Shown here in pieces: positions 8,528 through 54,010 of a DNA stretch of 64,000 nucleotides (its first letter is position 1; every line of letters begins with the position of its first letter). The stretch lies in assembly GCA_963665455.1 (NCBI GenBank), contig OY762279.1:4443492-4507491 (forward strand). The letters run 5' to 3'. The notes beneath the pieces were generated by a model that was given only the letters and a program-made list of their open reading frames with translations, did not search any database and was not told the origin of the DNA. This DNA is from Pseudomonadales bacterium (GTDB lineage: Bacteria > Pseudomonadota > Gammaproteobacteria > Pseudomonadales > Azotimanducaceae). Position numbers and translations under genes: made by a program.

Positions 8528-9037
8528 CTACATCACGGCGGGTTCCGGCGACTCCAACCCGAGGCTCCGCATCATCAGGTCGTTCCAGTCGGACGTGAAC
8601 AGGCGTTCCGGCTTGATCTCGAGCCAAACCATACCCGGCGCCGCCACCATCTGCGCGGTGCGCCGTTCCAGGTTGTACGTGCCGAGCTTGCGCATGAGCC
8701 GTGCGGCCATCTCTTCGTGTACGGCCGGGTCATCATGCACGGTACACACCCCGCGCAGGCTGATGCAGCGGTCCCGTCCGAGCCCGGTCCCGAGGACGGA
8801 CACGACGATGCACATGTTCGGGTTGCGCCGAATCGCGGCCATGCGCGGCAAGTCGCTCGGACTGCCTATCCAGACGCTGCCCTCGTGCCAGACGAACGAG
8901 ACCATCGTCCCAGCGCTGTTGCCGTCCCGGGTGTTCCAGATCATCGTGCATTCCCGTTGGGTCTCGAGGATCTGCTCCATCAGGTCGGGCGTCAGCAGTT
9001 TGGCGCCCATGCTTGGGGAGTTGCCTTCGTCCTTCAT
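8528..9037 (-). CDS. pyridoxamine 5'-phosphate oxidase-like FMN-binding split-barrel family protein
   Basis: 169-aa real part of track ORF 8528..10060, starting MKDEGNSPSM after AGGAGGA. ATGA overlap with the upstream Rieske gene. Pattern ...TMIWNTRDGNSAGTMVSFVWHEGSVWIGSPSDLPRMAAIRRNPNMCIVVS fits PPOX-class proteins. Confidence 0.6.
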   Translation of the reverse strand: MKDEGNSPSMGAKLLTPDLMEQILETQRECTMIWNTRDGNSAGTMVSFVWHEGSVWIGSPSDLPRMAAIRRNPNMCIVVSVLGTGLGRDRCISLRGVCTVHDDPAVHEEMAARLMRKLGTYNLERRTAQMVAAPGMVWLEIKPERLFTSDWNDLMMRSLGLESPEPAVM

Positions 9038-10203
9038 GCGCTCTTTCCTCCTATTGCGGTGAGCAGCCGACGCGCCAGCCAACGGTGCGTCGCGATGGCG
9101 GGTCCTTCCTGGAGCGGGCTCATCAGCCCGGGCTCGGCCCGGCTCGACCGGACCGCACGCGAGATGCCCCGGTCGAATACCGTCGAGTCCTGGAAGTTGA
9201 TCCTGTTCGGCCCCTCGGGGTCCGCGTATTGCTCCGGCGTGTACTGCTCGGCAGCGAACTCGGGAGGCGCCACGCTGAACATGGCGACCCGGGTCCGGTC
9301 GACCGAGATGGGCCAGTTCGCCTGGATGCTGAGCATGGCAGGTGTCGGCATCAGGAAATTGGCGGGGGGCGTAATGGTCATATCGAACGCCGGACGTCTC
9401 CGGCCGACCATGCCGATCTCGTCCTTGTCGGGCTCGAAGCCGTACCACCTGGTGTAGTACTCGAGGTCGAGTCCGAGCACCTGCCGGGACCAGTACTCGC
9501 CGCACGTCGTTGGCTCGGTCATGGAGAGTGGCTCGTACACCCGCATCGCCTCCGGGTGTACTCCCGGGCCGTGGTAGACGTCTCCATTCTCCATCGCCTG
9601 CTTCCAGTTCGTGTTCCACACGTCGACAAAGACGTTGTTGCACACGAGGTCTTCCCGGTCGCAGAACCGGAAGTAAGGCGCCAGGCCTTCGAGTCGTGGC
9701 GCAAGTGCCGCGGCATCGTCGTCGAAGTTCACGAAGACGACTCCGTTCCAGACCTCCACCCGGAACTCGGGGAGCGCGATCCGCGTCTTGTCGAAGCCGG
9801 CGTTGTCCGTCATGAAGGGCGCGCCGGCGAGCTTGCCGTCGAGCCCGTAGGTCCACAAGTGGTACGGGCACTGGAAGCGCTTCACGTTGCCGCGCTCCCC
9901 GTCCTGCGTGACCGGAACGGCGCGGTGCCGGCAGACCGATGAGAGGGCCCGGACCTTCCGGTCCTCGCCCCGCACGAACACGATCGGCTCGCCGAGGATT
10001 TCCCACGCGAAGTAGTCGCCGGGTTGCTTCAGCCACGCCGTGTGCCCGACCGCGATCCACTCCTTCCTCCAGACGTGCTCGAGTTCCAGCTCGTACACCT
10101 CGGGCGAGTAGTAGTGGAAGAGGTCCGGCGTGCGCGGTTGATCGTCCGGAGTCGCGAGATAGGCTTCGAGCGACTCGCGGATCTGCTCAAGCCCCGATCT
10201 CAT
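9034..10203 (-). CDS. Rieske [2Fe-2S] ring-hydroxylating oxygenase alpha subunit
   Basis: CRHRAVPV...CPYHLWTY (CxH..CxxH) Rieske motif, followed by a catalytic domain with NWKQAMENGDVYHGPGVHP. Confidence 0.85.
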   Translation of the reverse strand: MRSGLEQIRESLEAYLATPDDQPRTPDLFHYYSPEVYELELEHVWRKEWIAVGHTAWLKQPGDYFAWEILGEPIVFVRGEDRKVRALSSVCRHRAVPVTQDGERGNVKRFQCPYHLWTYGLDGKLAGAPFMTDNAGFDKTRIALPEFRVEVWNGVVFVNFDDDAAALAPRLEGLAPYFRFCDREDLVCNNVFVDVWNTNWKQAMENGDVYHGPGVHPEAMRVYEPLSMTEPTTCGEYWSRQVLGLDLEYYTRWYGFEPDKDEIGMVGRRRPAFDMTITPPANFLMPTPAMLSIQANWPISVDRTRVAMFSVAPPEFAAEQYTPEQYADPEGPNRINFQDSTVFDRGISRAVRSSRAEPGLMSPLQEGPAIATHRWLARRLLTAIGGKSA

Positions 10204-37229: not shown

Positions 37230-37346
37230 GTTACGAAAGTCCCCGTTCCTGCCCTTCGCTACGGTCGCCGTCGATCAACGTGCCGAACTATGGGGCGCGG
37301 AAGATGTAGCATTCTACCCGAAGCGGCTTCGCATCTAAACCGTTGA

Positions 37347-38807
37347 TTAGCGGCGAAAGAAGGCCGCTACGCGCGCGTCCTCCACCGGCCGGGTCGTGGC
37401 CGCCACCACGACATAGACGAGGATCGACGCCAAGAGCGCCGGAAACACCTCGTGCAGGTGCGCTTGCCAGCCGAGCAGCAGCCAGCCGACCAACACCGCG
37501 ATCCCCGTTCCGAACGCCGCGAGCGCCGCAGTCTCGCTGCCACGCCGCCAGTGCAGGCCGATCACGACCGTCGGGATGAAGCACACGGCATAGAGGCTAC
37601 CGGAGAAGATGGTGATCTCGACAATGCCACCGGGCGGGTCGAGGGCGACCACGGCCGCCACCACGGCGAAGGCGATCACGCCCGAACGTGTCCAGGCGAT
37701 GGCCGAGCGGTCCGGCAGCGGGCCGAGTTCCATGCGAATGTCCCGCACCACCACGGAGGCGGCGACGAGGAGCACGCTGTCCAGCGACGACATCGCCGCC
37801 GCCAGGATGGCCACGACGAGGAAGTCTCCCACGAGGGCCGGGAACACCCGCGGGTCCGTAACCAAGAGCGGCACGACGAGATCGGTATCCGTCACGCCAT
37901 CGAGCAGGAAGCGCGCATAGAGCCCGACCGGCAGCAGCGAGAACTGCACGACGAGGATGCCGATGCCCGCGATCCACATCCCCGTGTGGATGCTGCGCGC
38001 GTCCCGGAGCCCGTAGAAGCGCGTGACCTGGCGCGGATCCACCAGCAGCTTGAGCGAGCCGGCCAGGGCGATGCCGACGAGGACGACGAAGGGAATGGCG
38101 GCATTCAGTTCCGTGAGATGGGACGTGTCCGGGCGGGTGCCCAGTTCCCGGATGATGCCCACGCCCCCCGCGGCGTGCGTCACGAAGCCGAAGAGCAGGA
38201 GCGCGCCGACGACCATGAGCACGCCCTGGAGTACGTCGGTACGGACCACCGACACGAACCCTCCGAGGGACGTATAGGACATCACGATGACGAGGGTGAT
38301 GCCGACCGCGGCCGGATACGGCACCCCGAGGAACGCCTCGAACAAGTTGCCCGCGCCCTTGAAGATGGCGATCAGGTAGAGAAGGCTGGAGAAGGCGATC
38401 ACCAGCGCGGAGGCGATCCGGACCCGCCGGCTTGCGAAGCGCACGGCGAGGAAGTCCGGCACGGTCACCGAATCCCATTGCGCCGTGAAGCGGCGCAGCC
38501 TCGGCGCGACGAGCCGCCACGACACGAAGGCCATGACCACGAGCATGACGGCCATCGTCAGCCACGGCACGCCGTACTCGTACCCCTTCCCGGCGTGGCC
38601 GATGTAGCTGTTCGTGCTCGCGAACGTCGCGTAGAACGAGACGCCGATGACGACGCCGCCCATGGAACGGCCACCGACGTAGAAGTCGCGGACCGCGCGC
38701 CCACGCCGCATCCCCGCCCGCGCGTGGGCGACGAGGAAGCCTGTGTACGCCGCGAAGAGCGCCACGGCGAACCAGTGCTGCGCCAGCCACGCGGCCGGTC
38801 CACTCAC
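37347..38807 (-). CDS. sodium:solute symporter (SSS) family transporter
   Basis: 486 aa polytopic. ...DFYVGGRSMGGVVIGVSFYATFASTNSYIGHAG is the typical SSS N-terminal region. Confidence 0.8.
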   Translation of the reverse strand: MSGPAAWLAQHWFAVALFAAYTGFLVAHARAGMRRGRAVRDFYVGGRSMGGVVIGVSFYATFASTNSYIGHAGKGYEYGVPWLTMAVMLVVMAFVSWRLVAPRLRRFTAQWDSVTVPDFLAVRFASRRVRIASALVIAFSSLLYLIAIFKGAGNLFEAFLGVPYPAAVGITLVIVMSYTSLGGFVSVVRTDVLQGVLMVVGALLLFGFVTHAAGGVGIIRELGTRPDTSHLTELNAAIPFVVLVGIALAGSLKLLVDPRQVTRFYGLRDARSIHTGMWIAGIGILVVQFSLLPVGLYARFLLDGVTDTDLVVPLLVTDPRVFPALVGDFLVVAILAAAMSSLDSVLLVAASVVVRDIRMELGPLPDRSAIAWTRSGVIAFAVVAAVVALDPPGGIVEITIFSGSLYAVCFIPTVVIGLHWRRGSETAALAAFGTGIAVLVGWLLLGWQAHLHEVFPALLASILVYVVVAATTRPVEDARVAAFFRR

Positions 38808-38869: not shown

Positions 38870-39091
38870 ATGCGCTATCTCGTGCAACTGCTCATCCCCG
38901 CCCTGATCCTCCTGGGGGTGATCTGGGCCATCTCGCGCAGCCGACGCACCAACACGCGATCCGCCTCCGGTGACGGTAACGAACTCCTTTCCACCCCCGC
39001 CTTTCTGCTCATTCTGGTGATCGGCGCGGCGCTGGCGGTGGCGTTGCTGTTTGCGATGGGCGCCTGGACGGGGGTTCAAGCAGATCCATGA
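38870..39091 (+). CDS. possible small two-helix membrane protein
   Basis: MRYLVQLLIPALILLGVIWAI...FLLILVIGAALAVALLFAMG. It overlaps the convergent POT gene by 83 nt, so it may be spurious. Confidence 0.2.
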   Translation: MRYLVQLLIPALILLGVIWAISRSRRTNTRSASGDGNELLSTPAFLLILVIGAALAVALLFAMGAWTGVQADP

Positions 39092-40583
39092 TGCGGTGCC
39101 GGCACGCGAACGCCGCGATGGCGGCGACCGTGCAGCCGGCCGCGATGCCGAGGTAGACGGCCCGGATACCGACGGGTTCCGCCAACGCGCCGATCTGCCC
39201 CGACACCCAGATGCCGACGCCCCCGAAGAGGAGCCACACGCCCATGAGGGTGTTCGCCAAGCGCCGCGGGGCCTCCCGACTCACGAACGCCTGACCCACC
39301 GGCACCACGGTCATCTGGCCGAAGGTGATGACCCAGTAGTAGACCAGGGGCCAGAACAAGGGGATCTGCCCGTCCGTGTCGTCGCCCATGGCCGGCAGGA
39401 TGGCGGCCAGGATTCCGAACGCGCCGGCCGTCAGCAACAGGCCGGCAGCCATCTTGGCCGGGGGTTCCCGCAAGACCCCGCGCTCGTCCAGGGCATTCCA
39501 CACCGCCAGCATGATAGGACCGACGATGATCACGAACAGCGCCTGCGCCGAATGGATCCAGAGCGTGGGAATCTCGAATCCGAACACCACCCGGTCGGTG
39601 TCGTTCTCGACGAATAGGCTGAACGAGCCACCCCATTGTTCAAAGGCCGCGATGAAGACGAAGTAAGCGAGGCACATGCCGCAGATCGCGACGACGCGCC
39701 GCCGCTCCACCCGCGAGAGGGTGAGCAGGCTGGCGTCCAGGGCGATGGGGCTCGCCGCGGCCGGCCTCAATGCATCGGCGGACGATTGCGCGGAAGGCCG
39801 GACCCGCGACAGGAGCGCCGCCGCCAAGGCCACCATCACGGCGGCCGCCGCAAGCCCCTCGATCCAGCCCATGCGGCTCGCGATGGTCCCGGAGACCAAG
39901 GCACCGACGATGAAGCCGAGCATCGCCGCCATGAACAGGAGCGTGTAGCCCGCCTCGCGTTTGGCCCTGCTGCCCTCGTAGAGCGACCCCACCATGACGG
40001 CCAGGGCCGGGGACTGCAGACCAAAGCCCGCGATGAAAGTGGCCAAGGCTCCGTAGAAGAGCACCGACATCGTTGCGTAGGCCCCCACCGCGGCGTCATG
40101 GAGTACCTCCGCGCCCGCCGCGTCCACGGAGTATCCGCGCGCTTCCGCCAGGAGCCGGACGGCCGACGCGTCGTCGAGCCCCAAGCGCGCAATGGGAACG
40201 TCCGCAGCGAGGATCACCGCCCGCACCGGCGCATCGTGCACGTGGCCGAACATGGCCGGCACCAGTCCCACCGCGATGAGCAGGAAGAACGCTGCGGCTT
40301 GCAGCCACATGCCGAGGACGGCCGCCCGGCGCTGGCCGAGGAACGCGTCCGCGATCCATCCTCCGATGACCGGGGAGCCGTGCACCAAGCCCGTGAACAG
40401 GCCGTAAAGGCGCACCGCCTCGGCATTCGTCCAACCGTAGCCGTACTCCGCGGGCGCGGCCGTCATGATGAGCACGAGATGGCCGATCAGGCCCGCGTAC
40501 GCCGCGATGTGCCATAAGGCCACGTGCGTCAGGGGGTAGATCTGACGCGGATGATGGAGGAGAACCTCGGTGAAGCGTGCCAT
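39009..40583 (-). CDS. proton-dependent oligopeptide transporter (POT/PTR2)-like MFS protein, divergent
   Basis: GGWIADAFLGQRRAAVLG loop typical of POT. The N-terminal ExxERF motif is degenerate. Confidence 0.6.
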   Translation of the reverse strand: MARFTEVLLHHPRQIYPLTHVALWHIAAYAGLIGHLVLIMTAAPAEYGYGWTNAEAVRLYGLFTGLVHGSPVIGGWIADAFLGQRRAAVLGMWLQAAAFFLLIAVGLVPAMFGHVHDAPVRAVILAADVPIARLGLDDASAVRLLAEARGYSVDAAGAEVLHDAAVGAYATMSVLFYGALATFIAGFGLQSPALAVMVGSLYEGSRAKREAGYTLLFMAAMLGFIVGALVSGTIASRMGWIEGLAAAAVMVALAAALLSRVRPSAQSSADALRPAAASPIALDASLLTLSRVERRRVVAICGMCLAYFVFIAAFEQWGGSFSLFVENDTDRVVFGFEIPTLWIHSAQALFVIIVGPIMLAVWNALDERGVLREPPAKMAAGLLLTAGAFGILAAILPAMGDDTDGQIPLFWPLVYYWVITFGQMTVVPVGQAFVSREAPRRLANTLMGVWLLFGGVGIWVSGQIGALAEPVGIRAVYLGIAAGCTVAAIAAFACRHRIMDLLEPPSRRPSQTATPPPAPRRSPE

Positions 40584-40636
40584 CGTCCCTCGCCGCGCCG
40601 GCGCGGTGCGTCGCCCGCCGACGGTCGGCGGAACGC

Positions 40637-41647
40637 TCAGATGCCCAGCGTGCGGACGACGAAGCGCTGGAACGCGTGCATCGCCCCTTCGCTGTTGCCG
40701 TCAGGATTGTAGATGACCCGGCCCCGGTCGTAGCCGAGGGACGCGAGGCCCTTCTGCACCGACTCGCAGAGCGACTTGTCTTCCCCACCGATGTCGCCCC
40801 AGTCCGGCCGCCACTCCTCCGTGTCGAGTTCCTCGGGCAGCCGGTACACGTCCATCCGGCCCGCGCCCGTGCGGGCCGGGCCCTCCGGAGCGCCGAAGTT
40901 CATGGCGTGGATCGACTGCTTCTCGCGGGTGCCCGAGTTCCAGAACACGAAGCTCGGAAAGAGCGTCCAGAACATCTGCTGGTCCCCATCGGCGCGGCGC
41001 GTTCCGCTCATCTGCTTGGCCCAGAGGTCATGCCCCGTGTAGGTCAGGTCCTCGAAGGTCAGGTCCCGCAGGGAGCCGGGGTGCGCCGGAGGGCAGTGAT
41101 AGCACTCGAGGAAGTTGTCCATGACGATCTTCCAATTCGCCCGGATGGGGAAGTACTCATCGTACCTCTGCTGCAGCGTGCCGCCCCGGCCGCGCATGAT
41201 GATGACGCTCTGGTCGAGCAACTCCGCCGTGATGTAGCCGCCCGGCGTACGCAGATCGCCCACCCAGCCGGCGTACGTCCAGCTCTTGTAGAAGAGTTCG
41301 TGCTTTTCGCGTTCGTAGACGTCGGGGTCGAGATGGGCCCATGCGGGGAGAGAATGGGATCGAGCGGGATCGTCCGTGACCCCGGTGGGCGTAGCGGGCC
41401 TACACCGCACGAGCGTCTGTTCCCAAAGCTCCACCGACATCGGACTAGCAGGGTCCCCGCAGAGGCCAACCAGCTCCTCGATGCGCCCGATGTACTGCTC
41501 CTGAACCGTCTGGCCGACGTACTCGTTCGGCGCGACGAGTCTGATGGTCGACCCGCCCTGCCGAGCCTCAAGCGGACTGATCCACGTGCTGAATTGCTCC
41601 GGCGCAAGCTCGGCCCGCAACCGTGCGAGGCACTCTTCCCACACCAT
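40637..41647 (-). pseudogene. chimeric ORF: DnaA domain I-like N-terminus fused to a ring-hydroxylating oxygenase alpha subunit lacking its Rieske cluster region
   Basis: Residues from ATG 41647, MVWEECLARLRAELAPEQFSTWISPLEARQGGSTIRLVAPNEYVGQTVQEQYIGRIEEL, parallel E. coli DnaA [27 protein letters not shown]...LYAPNRFV. Next comes an RHO N-terminal stub, DPDVYEREKHELFYKSWTYAGWVGDLRTPGGYITAELLDQSVIIMRG. It jumps at about 41170 straight to catalytic-domain motifs ANWKIVMDNFLECYHCPPAHP, with no CxH..CxxH. Confidence 0.5.
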
Positions 41648-41788
41648 CCCCGTCCCCTTGGCCGCAGCAAATCTAGCTCGCCGAGAGTCTCCCAGCCTTA
41701 CCGGCATGTGTCCACAACGACTCAAGGGCGGGCCGATCACGCCCGAACGCGGTGGTGCTATCCGGTATCATCGACTCGCGGCGCGAAC

Positions 41789-41819
41789 ACGAGTCGTCAC
41801 CAAGAGCGAACGAGTCGTC
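41789..41819 (+). promoter_or_regulatory. two 10-bp direct repeats upstream of the PLD nuclease gene
   Basis: ACGAGTCGTC at 41789-41798 and 41810-41819 (21-bp spacing), plus inverted CGACTCG at 41772-41778. These sit 22 nt before ATG 41841. Confidence 0.2.
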
Positions 41820-41840
41820 GCACGACGAGGAGAGAAACGC

Positions 41841-42905
41841 ATGGCCGAACTGCTCGGGAGCGACTTCACCTCGAAGTTCAAGAAGCGTGTGGCGTCGGCC
41901 CGGGAAGTTTGGATTTGTTCGGCATGGATGACCGAAAGCCAGGCTCTGAACGCCTTGGTCAGCCGGAAGCGAGAATGTGCCGTGCGGGTCATCGTCGGCA
42001 TTCGCGGGAACGCAACATCGCCCGACAGCCTGTACAGGCTCGCGCAGGAGTTCGGGTGGGAGAGGGTCAGGATCGCCGATCCACCGGACCGTCTGTTCCA
42101 CGCCAAGCTCTTCCTGTTCCACTACCCCCGACGTCCGACCGTCGCGTGGATTGGCAGCGCCAACTTCACGGGCCACGGAATGGAGGTGAACAGAGAACTG
42201 ATGCTTGAGACCAGCCACAGCAGCGCCGTGACGGCTATGCAGAAGTGGTTCGACAAAGAGTGGGAGGATTGCTGCCCCGATACGGAGGCGGTGGCCGCAG
42301 CGTATCGGCAGCGGTGGACGCCGCCCAACGAATTCAACGGCGACTGGGGCGGCGAGCCAGCACCAGTCGGGCCCCGCCCCCGAACCGGGCCAGACAGGCG
42401 CAGCTTGGTCGACTTGCGGGAAAAGCCGGACAACGGCAAGTGCTACAAATTCAAGTACTTCGGAGAAGACCGCTGGGCGAAATCGCTCGCCGAGATTGCA
42501 CGCAACGTGCTCGTCGCCTTCGGGGACGCTGATCCAGATTTCCTGACAAGGTTCGCGACGAAGGATGACGAGGCGCGCACGGCTCTCCCGAGCGCCACGA
42601 GGCGTTACCTGAGCAAAAGACGCGGGGAGCTGGGCACACAACCGCCAAAGGGTGGGCTACCAAAGCCACATGGGCAATGGCGGATGGCGCAACGCTTGGA
42701 GGAGCACCTCTTTTTTCAGGGTAAATCGCGTCCCGGCATACTAAAGATGGCTTGCGAGGCCATGGACGTAACCTACGGAGAGGGCGACGCAGGGCCCATC
42801 GACTTTCAAAGTACCCAGAGAAGCAAGCCACCCGGATTCGCGGAAGGCGAGGTCATCCTAGTGAAGATCGGAACCAGATCGGAGCGTCACCGGCTAGACT
42901 CTTAG
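41841..42905 (+). CDS. phospholipase D/Nuc-family (single HKD) nuclease with an unassigned C-terminal domain
   Basis: ATG 41841 inside track ORF 41544..42905. FHAKLFLFHYPRRPTVAWIGSANFTGHG is the HxK(x)4D...GSxN motif (42099-42164). The last ~190 aa are unrecognised. Confidence 0.7.
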   Translation: MAELLGSDFTSKFKKRVASAREVWICSAWMTESQALNALVSRKRECAVRVIVGIRGNATSPDSLYRLAQEFGWERVRIADPPDRLFHAKLFLFHYPRRPTVAWIGSANFTGHGMEVNRELMLETSHSSAVTAMQKWFDKEWEDCCPDTEAVAAAYRQRWTPPNEFNGDWGGEPAPVGPRPRTGPDRRSLVDLREKPDNGKCYKFKYFGEDRWAKSLAEIARNVLVAFGDADPDFLTRFATKDDEARTALPSATRRYLSKRRGELGTQPPKGGLPKPHGQWRMAQRLEEHLFFQGKSRPGILKMACEAMDVTYGEGDAGPIDFQSTQRSKPPGFAEGEVILVKIGTRSERHRLDS

Positions 42906-43025
42906 GCGCGGTCCGTTCCTTGCTGCCTAGTGCTAGTGGACGTCCTTGACGCGGCTCTCATTGATGCACAGTCCCACCGAGTCCAGTCCTGACGACGAGC
43001 CCTTTGGACAGTAAGGCTGATCGGG

Positions 43026-43739
43026 TCACGCGTCTCCATCGGGTACCTGTTGATGATCGCGACAGAACTGCCAAAGATAGGCGTCCACCTGCTGCCGGGT
43101 GAGTCCGTGTTCCCGCGCAAGAAAGGTCACCATTTGGTCCGGGGTCGCCGAACACGCATTGGCGCATTGGATGATCCACGTGTCCGCCTTTTCGGTGTCC
43201 TCGATACCGAGAATCAGGGCCAAGTGTTGGCCCGTCGCGGGCCCTATCCAAGGCAACTCCACCAGGGCCGAGCGGCCTCGCTCCACCACACGCTCCCTGA
43301 AGGCGGGCCACCCTTCCGCGTTGATCATTCGGCATCCCTTGAGGAAAGCGTCGGCCTTGGCCTGATTGCGGATCGGTAGCGTCTGGGCGTCCACCCCGTC
43401 CATCGCCACGATCTTGTCCAGATCCAGCTCGTGGAATGCCGCTACGAGGGCAGGCAAGTGCTTGGCCACGACCGCAGTACGGAAACCCGACTCAAAGACC
43501 ACGCAAAGGTAGTCCTCAAGGAAAGTCCTCAGATCCACATCCTCGAACTTGCGAGGCTTGAAGATGTCGTCGCCCACATGCCTGCGAGCCACAGCCAGCA
43601 TCCGGCTTGCCTTGTCCTTGTCCACACGAATCGCTCCCGTGACCGTCGCCGAGTATGGCCCAAAACGCAAACGACCGCTCCCGCCAAGTGAATCCCGCGC
43701 CCGATGGCATCTGCGTGCGGGGGCGTGGGACGGAATCAC
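43026..43739 (-). CDS. helix-hairpin-helix protein, Tag/HhH DNA-glycosylase-like (tentative)
   Basis: LPWIGPATGQHLALILGI HhH motif. The preceding helices (LRTFLEDYLCVVFESGFRTAVVAKHLPALVAAFHELDLDKIVAM...IRNQAKADAFLKG) parallel E. coli Tag LFEMICLEGQQAGLSW...FDPVKVAAM...IIRHRGKIQAII. Start is either GTG 43739 (GTGA overlap with the zinc-ribbon gene) or ATG 43601. Confidence 0.4.
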   Translation of the reverse strand: MIPSHAPARRCHRARDSLGGSGRLRFGPYSATVTGAIRVDKDKASRMLAVARRHVGDDIFKPRKFEDVDLRTFLEDYLCVVFESGFRTAVVAKHLPALVAAFHELDLDKIVAMDGVDAQTLPIRNQAKADAFLKGCRMINAEGWPAFRERVVERGRSALVELPWIGPATGQHLALILGIEDTEKADTWIIQCANACSATPDQMVTFLAREHGLTRQQVDAYLWQFCRDHQQVPDGDA

Positions 43740-44026
43740 GTCTTGTCCGGCAGCCCCTTCGAGATATCCCCCCGGCGATTGATCAGCCGGTCCGGATCCG
43801 CGTCCCGGGTGTTGTGCATCGCCCGGTCCACCATCTTGTCGTACTTGGGATCGAGGCGTTCGAGCTTCGAGAGGTTCGACAGGTGCACCGAGGGGCGGGA
43901 GACGATGCGCCGGGTGCTTTCGCTACCGCAGCGTTCGCACGGATGCGGCGCGTTGGCGCGCGACACCGGGGCGAGCACGGACGTCACCGCCCGGCAGTTA
44001 CTGCAGCGGTACTCGTAGATGGGCAT
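43736..44026 (-). CDS. FmdB-family zinc-ribbon protein
   Basis: MPIYEYRCSNCRAVTSV...HPCERCGS: CxxC..CxxC with the canonical MP.YEY.C start. 96 aa inside track ORF 43736..44419. Confidence 0.7.
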   Translation of the reverse strand: MPIYEYRCSNCRAVTSVLAPVSRANAPHPCERCGSESTRRIVSRPSVHLSNLSKLERLDPKYDKMVDRAMHNTRDADPDRLINRRGDISKGLPDKT

Positions 44027-44046
44027 CCGCCGCCCGCCCGGCGCCG

Positions 44047-44433
44047 TCAGGCGGCGAGTTCCGCTCCCTTGTCGATCAGGGCCTGAATCGAGAGGTGATA
44101 GCGCTCGAACTTCATCTTGTCGAGGACGTTGCGGGAGCTCACGATCTCGCGGTCGGTGTCCAGGGAGAGCAGCGACGGTCCGGTCCCCTTCTTGCGGCGC
44201 TTGAGGTAGTTCGTCCAGTCGCGCGCGGGCATGTCGATGACCAGTTCGACGTCGCGCAGGTCGTCCTCGCCGATCGCCTCGATCATGCCAACCTCGAATG
44301 CCTCCAGGATGACCCTGCGAATCGTCTTGCCGGCCTTGAAGCCGATCACCACGTCCGCGCTGCCGAGTTTCCGGTAGGCGGGATCGACGTTGAGCGCGTC
44401 TCTCGCGCCTTCGAGCCAATCGAGCTGGGGCAT
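44047..44433 (-). CDS. SCP2-like (sterol carrier protein 2 fold) small protein
   Basis: About 128 aa. ...NVDPAYRKLGSADVVIGFKAGK...VELVIDMPARDWTNYL... resembles the SCP2 pattern and the upstream paralog-like gene. Alternative TTG start at 44442. Confidence 0.5.
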   Translation of the reverse strand: MPQLDWLEGARDALNVDPAYRKLGSADVVIGFKAGKTIRRVILEAFEVGMIEAIGEDDLRDVELVIDMPARDWTNYLKRRKKGTGPSLLSLDTDREIVSSRNVLDKMKFERYHLSIQALIDKGAELAA

Positions 44434-51120: not shown

Positions 51121-51197
51121 AGGTTCCTCCGTCTTGTCCCCAAGTCGAGCCGCAACCCTTGCACAACGCGGGGCGATGTCAAGCCGCTACGCCGCTA

Positions 51198-51341
51198 GGG
51201 AAGGTCTGAACAAGACCTTTCCTAGTGCGGCACAGGGATGTGCCGCCAGATTCGATGGCGTAAGCCATTGAATCTGTGGAGCAAGCCGAAACCGCGCTTT
51301 TGGCTTGCGACCTGAACAAGTCCATGGACGGACTTGTTCAG
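51198..51341 (+). ncRNA. candidate structured RNA or tandem hairpin array (unclassified)
   Basis: Five back-to-back hairpins. H1 51198-51222 (9 bp). H2 51227-51246 (8 bp, GGGA loop). H3 51247-51276 (13 bp, GUAA loop). H4 51281-51308 (11 bp). H5 51312-51341 (12 bp perfect). All non-Watson-Crick pairs are G.T on the plus strand. Confidence 0.3.
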
Positions 51342-51355
51342 AGGTTCCCCTAGTG

Positions 51356-51460
51356 CCCGCAAACCGTCGCCTATGGGGCCGCGCCGTAGGACGGCGCGAG
51401 CGCGTAGGTCGGAGGGGCTGGGCCGCGAGCGGAGCCGTAGGCGACGGTTGCGGGGCGCTA
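51356..51460. repeat. REP-like long imperfect hairpin containing a 60-nt repeat unit
   Basis: Arms 51356-51376 and 51435-51454 pair (20 bp, one bulge, one G.T). 51401-51460 is the reverse complement of 61206-61265 with 2 mismatches. Confidence 0.5.
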
Positions 51461-52309
51461 TGGGGCGCTCGTATCGAACACGTCGTCCAGCGTGCGCGCG
51501 TCGAGCACGTTCTCGGCCCATGCCTCCAAGTCGGTTGCCGACGCCTGATGGAGCCGGTCCGCGACCGCCGCGGAAAGGCGACCGAATCGCCGCCGCAAGA
51601 GGCGCTCCAGCACGGTCCGTTCACCGTCGACGCGGCCCTCGCGGATACCCTCGTCGCGTCCCACCCGCATGCCCTCGTCGCGCCCTTGCCGAATGCCCTC
51701 GTCCCGAGCCCTCTGGATCATTCCCGCCATGGTCTTGCTCTCCTCCGGATACCGCCGCCGGTAGGTTTCCTGCTCATTCTCCGTGAGCGCGGCGTAGATG
51801 TCGGTGAACTGCACGTACTTCGCGAGCTTGGCGGCGTCCGGCTCCAGCGCCCGCAGGCCGTGCGCCGCGTGCGCGAACACGTCGACCCGGTCCATGCCGG
51901 GCGGCCGGCGCATGTTCGGCAGGTTGACCAGCGCCACCGGGTTGTCGCTGTCCCGCCATTCCCCGGCGTCCATCGCGTCGAGCCGGCAAGAGAGGTGGTG
52001 GAACGTCAGGTAGTCGCCGCGTTCGGTGCCGAGCGCGAGCGTCTCGGGGTCCGGACCGTCGCGCAGGAAGATGGACACGGGCGCCACGCGGTTCGTCTTG
52101 AACAGCTCGGCGAGGTCGAGGCAATAGTGCGCCAGCCGGTGCCGCGAGAAGCGCCCGCCGTCGGTTTCCTCCTCCAGGGCGAAGAGCCCTCAGCCGGGGA
52201 GCGCGAGGGGCCTGCCCCTCGCATGAGAGAGCACCGTTTCGCGGCGGCCGTCGGCCCAATCGACGCGCAGGGGCGTGTCGAGCTCGTGGTACGCCAGCAT
52301 TGACGGCAT
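51458..52309 (-). pseudogene. Rpn-family (YhgA-like PD-(D/E)XK) recombination-promoting nuclease/putative transposase with DUF4351-like C-terminus, interrupted by an in-frame TGA
   Basis: Track ORFs 52190..52453 and 51458..52087 are in the same frame, separated by TGA 52190-52192: ...TPLRVDWADGRRETVLSHARGRPLALPG*GLFALEEETDGGRFSRHRLAHYCLDL... The C-terminus ERLLRRRFGRLSAAVADRLHQASATDLEAWAENVL is DUF4351-like. Confidence 0.5.
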
Positions 52310-52363
52310 CCAATGGGCGCGGCAGCATGCCGGCAGGTCGGTTCGAGCGCGGGAGGAGGCTCT

Positions 52364-52906
52364 TTGGATACCCGCAAGATCCTCGCCGTGCGCGAAACCA
52401 TCCTCGCGAACGAGTTCGGTCGGGAATGCCCCGCCATCGTCCGCGTCGCGCACATCGCGGTGCTGGCGAACCCATGCGCCGGGCGGTTCGAAAGCGACCT
52501 ATCCCCGCTGTTCGACCTTGGCGGGCGCACCGGGGAGCGCCTAGCACGAGACGCCGCCGCACTGCTCGGCGGGCCGGCGGTGAGCTACGGCAAGGCCGCC
52601 ATCGTGGGCGTCGCGGGAGAACTGGAACACGGCGCCGCCGCAATCCACCCGAAGCTCGGCAAGCCCATGCGCGCGGCCGTGGACGGCGGCGAGTCCCTGA
52701 TTCCCTCGAACGTCAAGCTCGGCCCCGTTGGCACCGCCATCGACATCCCCCTCGGCCACAAGGACGAGAGTTGGTCGTTCGACCACTTCGACACGATGAC
52801 CGTGATGGTGCCCGACGCCCCGCGGCCCGACGAGATCGTGCTGGCCGTCGCGGTCGCCGACGGGGGCCGGGCCCTGCCCCGCGCCGGCCAACGGCCCTTG
52901 GTCTAA
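52364..52906 (+). CDS. amino acid synthesis family protein (DUF1185)
   Basis: TTG 52364, 5 nt after GGGAGGAGG. ...SYGKAAIVGVAGELEHGAAAIHPKLGKPMRAAV...IPSNVKLGPVGTAIDIPLGHKD...HFDTMTVMVPDAPRPDEIV matches the family pattern closely. Confidence 0.65.
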   Translation: MDTRKILAVRETILANEFGRECPAIVRVAHIAVLANPCAGRFESDLSPLFDLGGRTGERLARDAAALLGGPAVSYGKAAIVGVAGELEHGAAAIHPKLGKPMRAAVDGGESLIPSNVKLGPVGTAIDIPLGHKDESWSFDHFDTMTVMVPDAPRPDEIVLAVAVADGGRALPRAGQRPLV

Positions 52907-52940
52907 GCCTGGCGGAGGCCGTTTGTACCGACGAGAAGAA

Positions 52941-53993
52941 ATGCTCGGATTCCCTTCGCCGCTGTTCGCCGGGGAGGCGTTTCGGCTCCGGGGAGCGTGG
53001 GATCCCGAGGCCCGAGCCGCTTGGGAGGCGGCGACCGCGTTCATGTCCAGCGAGGCTTTTCCCGCGATCACCGAAGCCAACGTTCCGCAGCTCCGGGAGA
53101 TCAGCCGTCAGGATCCCGCCAACCGGAGTTCCAGCGACCTCGAGGCCCTGGCCCGATGCGAGACCGAGGTCGTGGAATGCGACGGTACCCGGTTCGGCTC
53201 CCCCGACAATCCGCGCATCGAGATTCGCGTACACGTACCCCGCGAGGGGTCGCCGGAGGCCGCCTTCAGAAAGGGATTGGTCTTCTATCACGGGGGCGCA
53301 TTCGTCCTCGGCTCGGCGACCGAGGAGGATCCGTGGGCGTGCCGCACTGCGGCCGAATGCGATCTGGTCGTCTTCAACGTCGACTATCGCAACGCACCCG
53401 AGACCCGGGCACCGGGCGGCATCCTCGACTGTTTCGCCGCCCTCCGCCACGTCGCCGCCGACCTTTGCCACCGCTACGGCGTGGACCCCGCACGCTTGGG
53501 GGTCTACGGCATCAGCAGCGGTGGATACCTCGCCGCCGGTGTCGCGATGGAACTTGCGAAGCGCCGCGCCGCAGACCTCGTTGGGCTGGTCATCGCGGAC
53601 GTGCCCGCCGTCAGCGACCACTGGGTGCGCCCGCCGCCCGCGTCACCGGATGCCGCGACGTGGCACTGGTCGCAGTCCGAGGTTGAGCGCTGGCACGGGA
53701 CGCACGGACACATTGAAACGCTCGCCATGCTGGCGGAGGACTGGGAGCGCCAGGTGCGGGACCGGGATCCCTACCTATTCCCCGCGACCATGGGCGACGA
53801 CCTGCTCCGGCACGTGCCGGACCATGTGATCATGACCCGGGAGTTCGATTTCCTGCGCACCGACGCCGAGCTGTTCGCGAGCGCGCTGGCACGGCACGGG
53901 AAACTGCTGGACTTCTACGTCCGCCCAGGCGTGAGCCACTACACGGGACCGCAGGAGGGGGTTCTGAAGCGGATCGTGGACGCCTACCTCTGA
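52941..53993 (+). CDS. alpha/beta hydrolase, HSL-type esterase
   Basis: FYHGGAFVLGS and GISSGGYLAAG motifs. ATG 52941; the track start is TTG 52923. Confidence 0.75.
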   Translation: MLGFPSPLFAGEAFRLRGAWDPEARAAWEAATAFMSSEAFPAITEANVPQLREISRQDPANRSSSDLEALARCETEVVECDGTRFGSPDNPRIEIRVHVPREGSPEAAFRKGLVFYHGGAFVLGSATEEDPWACRTAAECDLVVFNVDYRNAPETRAPGGILDCFAALRHVAADLCHRYGVDPARLGVYGISSGGYLAAGVAMELAKRRAADLVGLVIADVPAVSDHWVRPPPASPDAATWHWSQSEVERWHGTHGHIETLAMLAEDWERQVRDRDPYLFPATMGDDLLRHVPDHVIMTREFDFLRTDAELFASALARHGKLLDFYVRPGVSHYTGPQEGVLKRIVDAYL

Positions 53994-54010
53994 CCGCACG
54001 CAGCAGCCGT

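Follow-up and report, generated by a model that had tools for sequence, protein, structure and literature searches.

The open reading frame at 40637-41647(-) of the window (the whole stretch of 64,000 nucleotides analysed here) joins the 5' end of a dnaA-type gene to an oxygenase gene that has lost its Rieske cluster. The anatomy, the junctions and the uniqueness of this chimera are shown by sequence comparison, and it is most likely a recombination scar, that is, a lineage-specific chimeric pseudogene left by two illegitimate-recombination events in a CntA-like oxygenase gene. The frame is a real feature but of an ordinary kind, most likely a one-off broken gene.

From the ATG at 41647 to the stop codon at 40637-40639, the frame encodes 336 amino acids (P0001), and it stays open further upstream, to a GTG at 41740. 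Codons 1-31 of this longer frame have GC contents of 0.65, 0.68 and 0.61 at the three codon positions and lack GC3 periodicity, whereas the remainder is GC3-enriched (0.80-0.92), which makes the ATG at 41647 the credible start. Profile searches bore out the two-part composition given in a preliminary description of this DNA: the first ~80 residues correspond to DnaA domain I (DnaA_N, PF11638; E 1.1e-15, 57.6 bits against a Pfam cut-off of 24.6 bits, profile positions 3-63 of 65) and the later part to a ring-hydroxylating oxygenase (Ring_hydroxyl_A, PF00848; E 1.1e-21), with no Pfam match to the Rieske domain (PF00355) anywhere in the frame. NCBIfam returned incomplete matches to GbcA and to DnaA, each far under its cut-off (the TIGR00362 score was 30 against a cut-off of 343.9), and neither Pfam nor NCBIfam placed an AAA+ ATPase domain (PF00308) or a C-terminal helix-turn-helix (PF08299) in the frame. 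The peptides that span the two junctions read …VRCRPATPTGVTDD… and …GRGGTLQQRYDEY…. Among the matches in a database of ~5.8 billion proteins, no second protein was built from DnaA_N and Ring_hydroxyl_A. An AlphaFold model of the chimera (mean pLDDT 66.9) scored under 50 for the junction and for the Rieske remnant and reached moderate to high confidence only in the core of the catalytic domain; this is compatible with a chimera whose structure is compromised, though it does not decide the matter.

The oxygenase part derives from a gene that congeners keep intact. Its closest relatives in the same ~5.8-billion-protein database, 72-87% identical where the sequences overlap, are without exception intact proteins of 374 aa with Rieske and Ring_hydroxyl_A domains, and the gene is present in four genus genomes (G010, G005, G014 and G013), intact and 374 aa long in 4/4. 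The orthologous loci share the order Zn_ribbon_8 gene, oxygenase and MFS/POT (PTR2) transporter, and the flanks in the window match it: the Zn_ribbon_8 gene at 43736-44026(-) forms the native left flank, and an intact MFS/POT transporter gene at 39009-40583(-) (Pfam PTR2 and MFS_1; omega 0.20) is the native gene that follows the oxygenase at every orthologous locus. Nucleotide synteny was read against the G010 locus (L009) and gave three collinear blocks, in which L009 5675-9929 corresponds to window 47893-43736, L009 10026-10243 to window 41388-41171, and L009 10585-14344 to window 41174-37349. The N-terminal part of the oxygenase (41171-41389(-), orthologue codons 10-82) comprises the N-terminal helices and the first Rieske strands and matches L009 10026-10243 at 83% in blastn; the catalytic-domain remnant with its stop codon (40637-41170(-)), which carries the Ring_hydroxyl_A match, is 90% identical to P0002.

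Among solved structures, CntA, the oxygenase subunit of carnitine monooxygenase (6Y8J; E 5.6e-56, full length), was nearest to the intact orthologue. Residues E181, H184, H189 and D290 of the chimera are kept and align to the ECYHC, PAHP and ED positions of CntA, which we take to be its bridging glutamate and its iron ligands (two His and one Asp); H184, H189, E289 and D290 are invariant. If a change counts as lineage-unique when one sequence departs from a residue shared by the other four orthologues, the window remnant has 9 such amino acid changes compared with 6, 6 and 10 in three intact orthologues, and its omega against G010 is 0.13-0.18. Since these values give no sign of long neutral decay, the inactivation of the oxygenase looks recent relative to species divergence.

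Alignment with the intact orthologues placed the internal junction at 41171-41174(-), in agreement with the earlier report that the sequence passes directly to catalytic motifs at ~41170. Here 342 bp (114 codons) are missing, in frame, at a (G)CAG microhomology: the orthologue (L009) reads CTCCAG/GGTTTC ... GAGCAGCAG/AGGTAC (slashes at the breakpoints), and the window reads CTGCAGCAGAGGTAC. The deleted segment holds NVCQHRGH and CPYHAW, and with them the four [2Fe-2S] ligands, and the deletion also took the first ~40 residues of the catalytic domain. No CxH..CxxH occurs in the frame, as had been noted before; its one remaining CxH string, CYH, belongs to the mononuclear-iron motif ECYHCPPAH. 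The gene at 9034-10203(-), cited earlier as an intact comparison, does have the cluster motifs (CRH...CPYH). Relocation of the deleted Rieske segment within the genome was considered and rejected, no second location being found elsewhere in the genome. Because the Rieske [2Fe-2S] centre is gone, the retained mononuclear iron site would have no electron input, and the fused protein is presumably dead as an oxygenase.

Upstream of the oxygenase remnant, synteny with the orthologous loci breaks at the two ends of a lineage-specific insert of 2,347 bp (41389-43735). The insert starts right after the TGA of the Zn-ribbon gene and replaces ~96 bp of the orthologous locus, namely the intergenic promoter region (which contains a TTGACA-type motif) and some 9 codons from the start of the oxygenase. 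Its GC content is 58-64%, against 65-70% in the flanks, and GC3 is 0.75 in its PLD gene, 0.73-0.75 in its OGG-like gene and 0.80 in its dnaA piece, compared with 0.87-0.92 in the native neighbours and 0.91 in the 5' end of the resident dnaA. The PLD gene, at 41841-42905(+), encodes a single-HKD PLD-family nuclease of 354 aa (PLDc_2 E 6.9e-14, RE_NgoFVII; ZacB/DrmC-like in PADLOC), and the OGG-like glycosylase gene, at 43026-43601(-), encodes 191 aa from the ATG at 43601 (PADLOC OGG E 6.9e-22). No terminal direct or inverted repeats and no target-site duplication were found at the insert borders. The insert was not found in 40 related genomes, where only its dnaA piece matched, to their dnaA genes (68-73% nucleotide identity).

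The PLD homologues (40-52% identity) stand alone in unrelated contexts, and the idea that DnaA_N travels with the PLD gene was rejected on three such contexts, none with DnaA_N. A donor islet upstream of dnaA likewise had no support, the conserved upstream region in the sampled genus members having no PLD or OGG gene. No sigma-70-like site was found within 40500-44100, and no DnaA box (TTWTNCACA) in the window. The breakpoints and the in-frame deletion, both read against the orthologous loci, uphold the preliminary description in its view of a recombination scar at the border of a PLD islet, fused to an oxygenase gene with an internal deletion.

The dnaA piece (41390-41647(-)) is the opening stretch, 86 codons long, of a diverged dnaA; it takes in domain I and the beginning of the domain II linker and has an ATG of its own, together with a GGGGA-type ribosome-binding site. 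Similarity to DnaA begins at this ATG and ends at about residue 82, having passed GDPASPMSVEL (up to and including which the identity to the DnaA P0070 is 56%) and entered the domain II linker. The oxygenase picks up again at residue 87, equivalent to codon 10 of the orthologues. The linker of ~25 aa that had been described after domain I is thus mostly DnaA-derived, and the first Rieske strands do come after it, as stated. A Met at 41440, which a first MAFFT alignment offered as a retained oxygenase start, was rejected because the stretch GDPASPMSVEL is DnaA-derived. The genuine dnaA of this genome (G000:C1:1205249) has DnaA_N, Bac_DnaA and Bac_DnaA_C, is followed by dnaN and recF, and sits ~3.3 Mb away from the chimeric frame, which agrees with the earlier statement that the window does not hold the dnaA locus.

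Identity of the piece to the resident dnaA is 58% (amino acids) and 70% (nucleotides); its best amino acid identity in the genus is 66%, to the dnaA of G012 and G013, at 70-72% in nucleotides (73% for G013 in the genome search). Its dS is 0.67-1.05 (0.79 to the resident gene) against 0.47-0.61 among genuine dnaA 5' ends, and pairwise omega values are 0.26-0.43 for the piece and 0.23-0.32 for those 5' ends. Of the 19 domain I columns conserved order-wide (at 90% or more across the order), 17 are retained by the piece. It has two radical changes, R24S in WIRPL and R45E, the latter beside the position aligned with E. coli F46, which is presumably the DnaB-contact residue. A domain I tree put the piece inside the genus clade that includes the host, where no branch is well supported, on a terminal branch of 0.47 (0.07 or less for that clade's genes). 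Given its clean ATG start, conserved positions and omega, the piece resembles a coding unit that was functional until recently more than it does decayed debris, and it looks as if it has not decayed much.

In the genus dnaA genes (L001, L014, L036 and L038-L040), a conserved element, CGTGCATAGAATGG, lies ~55 nt upstream of the start and is followed by a G-rich ribosome-binding site (CGTGCATAGAATGG ... GGGGGG-n-ATG); it is probably the -10 region of the dnaA promoter. The motif CGTGCATAGAATGG...GGGGGG is absent upstream of the dnaA piece, and the spacer between the piece and the divergent PLD gene (41648-41840) is not homologous to the genus dnaA upstream region, so homology begins at the start codon or the ribosome-binding site. 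Searches of metagenome, genome, plasmid and phage collections returned no close variant of the piece, and the short DnaA_N representatives were truncated ordinary DnaAs. The preliminary description had the piece duplicated from the resident dnaA, a view that the nucleotide comparison does not sustain, and a recent duplicate was rejected on the 70% nucleotide and 58% amino acid identities. These low identities, together with the lower GC3 (0.80 against 0.91), the missing genus upstream region and the position inside a non-syntenic, lower-GC insert, indicate that the piece was most likely imported with the islet; it looks like the 5' part of a dnaA-type gene that belonged to an unsampled relative.

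A history of two events probably accounts for this arrangement. In the first, a foreign, lower-GC patch of 2.35 kb would have entered immediately behind the stop codon of the Zn-ribbon gene upstream, bringing two defence-type genes (the PLD nuclease and the OGG-like glycosylase) and, at one end, the dnaA 5' piece; the insertion would have displaced the oxygenase promoter and ~9 codons, with dnaA and oxygenase joined in frame by chance. In the second, an in-frame deletion of 342 bp between (G)CAG microhomologies would have removed the [2Fe-2S] ligands and the Rieske core, presumably after or together with the insertion. From the sequence comparisons, we infer that both events were recent. The frame may persist as an open one because both joins are in frame (a chance of ~1 in 9, if the two are independent), and in-frame joins were perhaps favoured, as they would cause no premature termination or polarity on the intact downstream transporter gene.

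Several observations sit uneasily with a broken gene: the two joins are both in frame, the dnaA homology starts almost exactly at a start codon with its ribosome-binding site, the 17/19 conserved positions go with an omega like that of genuine dnaA 5' ends, and the remnant of the catalytic domain retains all iron ligands. An alternative, which we consider unlikely, would be that the DnaA domain I module is a genuine islet-borne gene, stand-alone or formerly fused, with the oxygenase remnant as an incidental extension; as cargo of a small defence-type islet, it would have a start codon of its own, regulatory DNA other than that of dnaA and a history of purifying selection. The product of such a gene would be expected to bind DnaA, the DnaB helicase and DiaA/HobA-type factors and to modulate or sense replication initiation, a role that seems doubtful to us; that it acted as a decoy or adaptor for host initiation partners, or as the sensor module of a since-lost effector, has a similarly low probability. 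An islet gene of this kind agrees with homology that begins at the ATG and ribosome-binding site next to non-dnaA upstream DNA common to the divergent PLD gene, with the omega of 0.26-0.43 and the 17/19 positions kept, and with the occurrence in the genus of DnaA_N fused to other domains (the 301-aa protein of G014 and the protein of G001). Against it, the dnaA piece has no short or fused relative in any collection searched, PLD homologues elsewhere lack a DnaA_N neighbour, two otherwise near-invariant arginines are radically changed (R24S and R45E), no promoter-like site is present, and the architecture is a singleton. The option that the preliminary description had ranked as less likely, a DnaA_N protein of a mobile element, accordingly keeps the standing of a minority possibility, no relatives having been found in the collections searched.

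Were the piece instead the 5' end of the resident dnaA, duplicated by intragenomic recombination and since diverged, its grouping with the genus clade that contains the host DnaA would be natural. We regard this as highly improbable, however, given that the piece is less similar to the resident gene than to other genus members (58% against 66% in amino acids, 70% against 72-73% in nucleotides), that its dS to the resident gene is 0.79 though the surrounding oxygenase scar looks recent, that its GC3 is lower and its location lies inside a foreign insert, and that its omega is well below 1, unlike the expectation for a dead duplicate. The genome consists of one 5.45-Mb contig, presumably metagenome-derived, in which a chimeric join or a collapsed region might in principle be an assembly artefact. 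Both sides of the insert are, however, collinear with the orthologous loci, which indicates an insertion and not the joining of distant regions; there are no border repeats to mislead an assembler, the deletion leaves a clean in-frame junction at a microhomology, and the genes within the insert are intact. An artefact is thus very unlikely, and a recombination scar accounts best for the frame.

With the CntA (6Y8J)/GbcA/choline-monooxygenase group the frame shares the catalytic domain, including ECYHCPPAHP and the Asp ligand, and with CntA/GbcA-like loci the downstream transporter context, in the position between Zn_ribbon_8 and MFS/POT genes. It differs from the group in lacking 114 residues, both Rieske ligand pairs, the start of the catalytic domain and a start codon and promoter of its own, and in carrying a DnaA head; as predicted from these losses, it cannot be an active member. 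The match to DnaA domain I is full-length, has the same MVWEEC start as the genus DnaAs and runs into the linker, but the frame is without the AAA+ domain, the C-terminal DNA-binding domain, the dnaN-recF context, the dnaA promoter region and DnaA boxes, and it has R24S and R45E at near-invariant positions. Chimeric pseudogenes made by islet insertion offer the closest likeness: a low-GC cargo of solitary defence-type genes, present in one lineage only, without integrase, att sites or terminal repeats, that replaces a short native segment. Unlike in such remnants, the insert here came with part of an essential housekeeping gene, frame-fused to the target gene, which is unusual, yet no new mechanism is needed for it.

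For annotation, the frame should carry the label of a disrupted CntA-like oxygenase gene, not that of a DnaA paralogue or an active oxygenase. The oxidation step for quaternary amines (carnitine/choline-type), which the congeners retain, has probably been lost in this lineage. The locus also provides a clean, datable case of a small defence islet inserted by illegitimate recombination with the creation of a chimeric frame. If the DnaA domain I piece were an expressed islet gene, it would bear on interference by mobile DNA with replication initiation.

Two further proteins in the genus likewise carry DnaA_N at the N-terminus of a non-DnaA protein, and a literature search on DnaA_N fusions found nothing relevant. 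In G014, a 301-aa frame (L041 1441-2346(+), G014:C135) has DnaA_N at aa 21-82 (E 2.6e-16), followed by a C-terminal part of ~200 aa that has no Pfam, PHROG or PADLOC match; this part also had no match in 301 genomes sampled from the order, an uninformative negative. In G001, a 5165-bp plasmid-like contig (L050, G001:C616) bears two ParB-like genes and a ParA gene, beside which lies a gene for DnaA_N (E 1.5e-10) followed by ~340 aa without a Pfam match; its product may be, as a guess, a plasmid Rep-type initiator with a borrowed DnaA domain I. The DnaA_N domains of the two proteins are much more diverged than the dnaA piece (tree branches of 1.6 and 2.8 against 0.47) and have no specific kinship to it, and neither protein has a C-terminal part related to oxygenases.

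Other differences mark the same region. Two more patches of the window, 51183-52408 and 52888-54008, are without counterpart in the G010 locus (L009), which indicates that the syntenic block gained several small inserts. Conversely, ~5.9 kb of G010 (L009 14344-20224, opposite window 37263-37349) are absent from the window and include HTH_32 and rve (integrase/transposase) genes, so congeners also differ in what lies downstream of the transporter and SSF genes.
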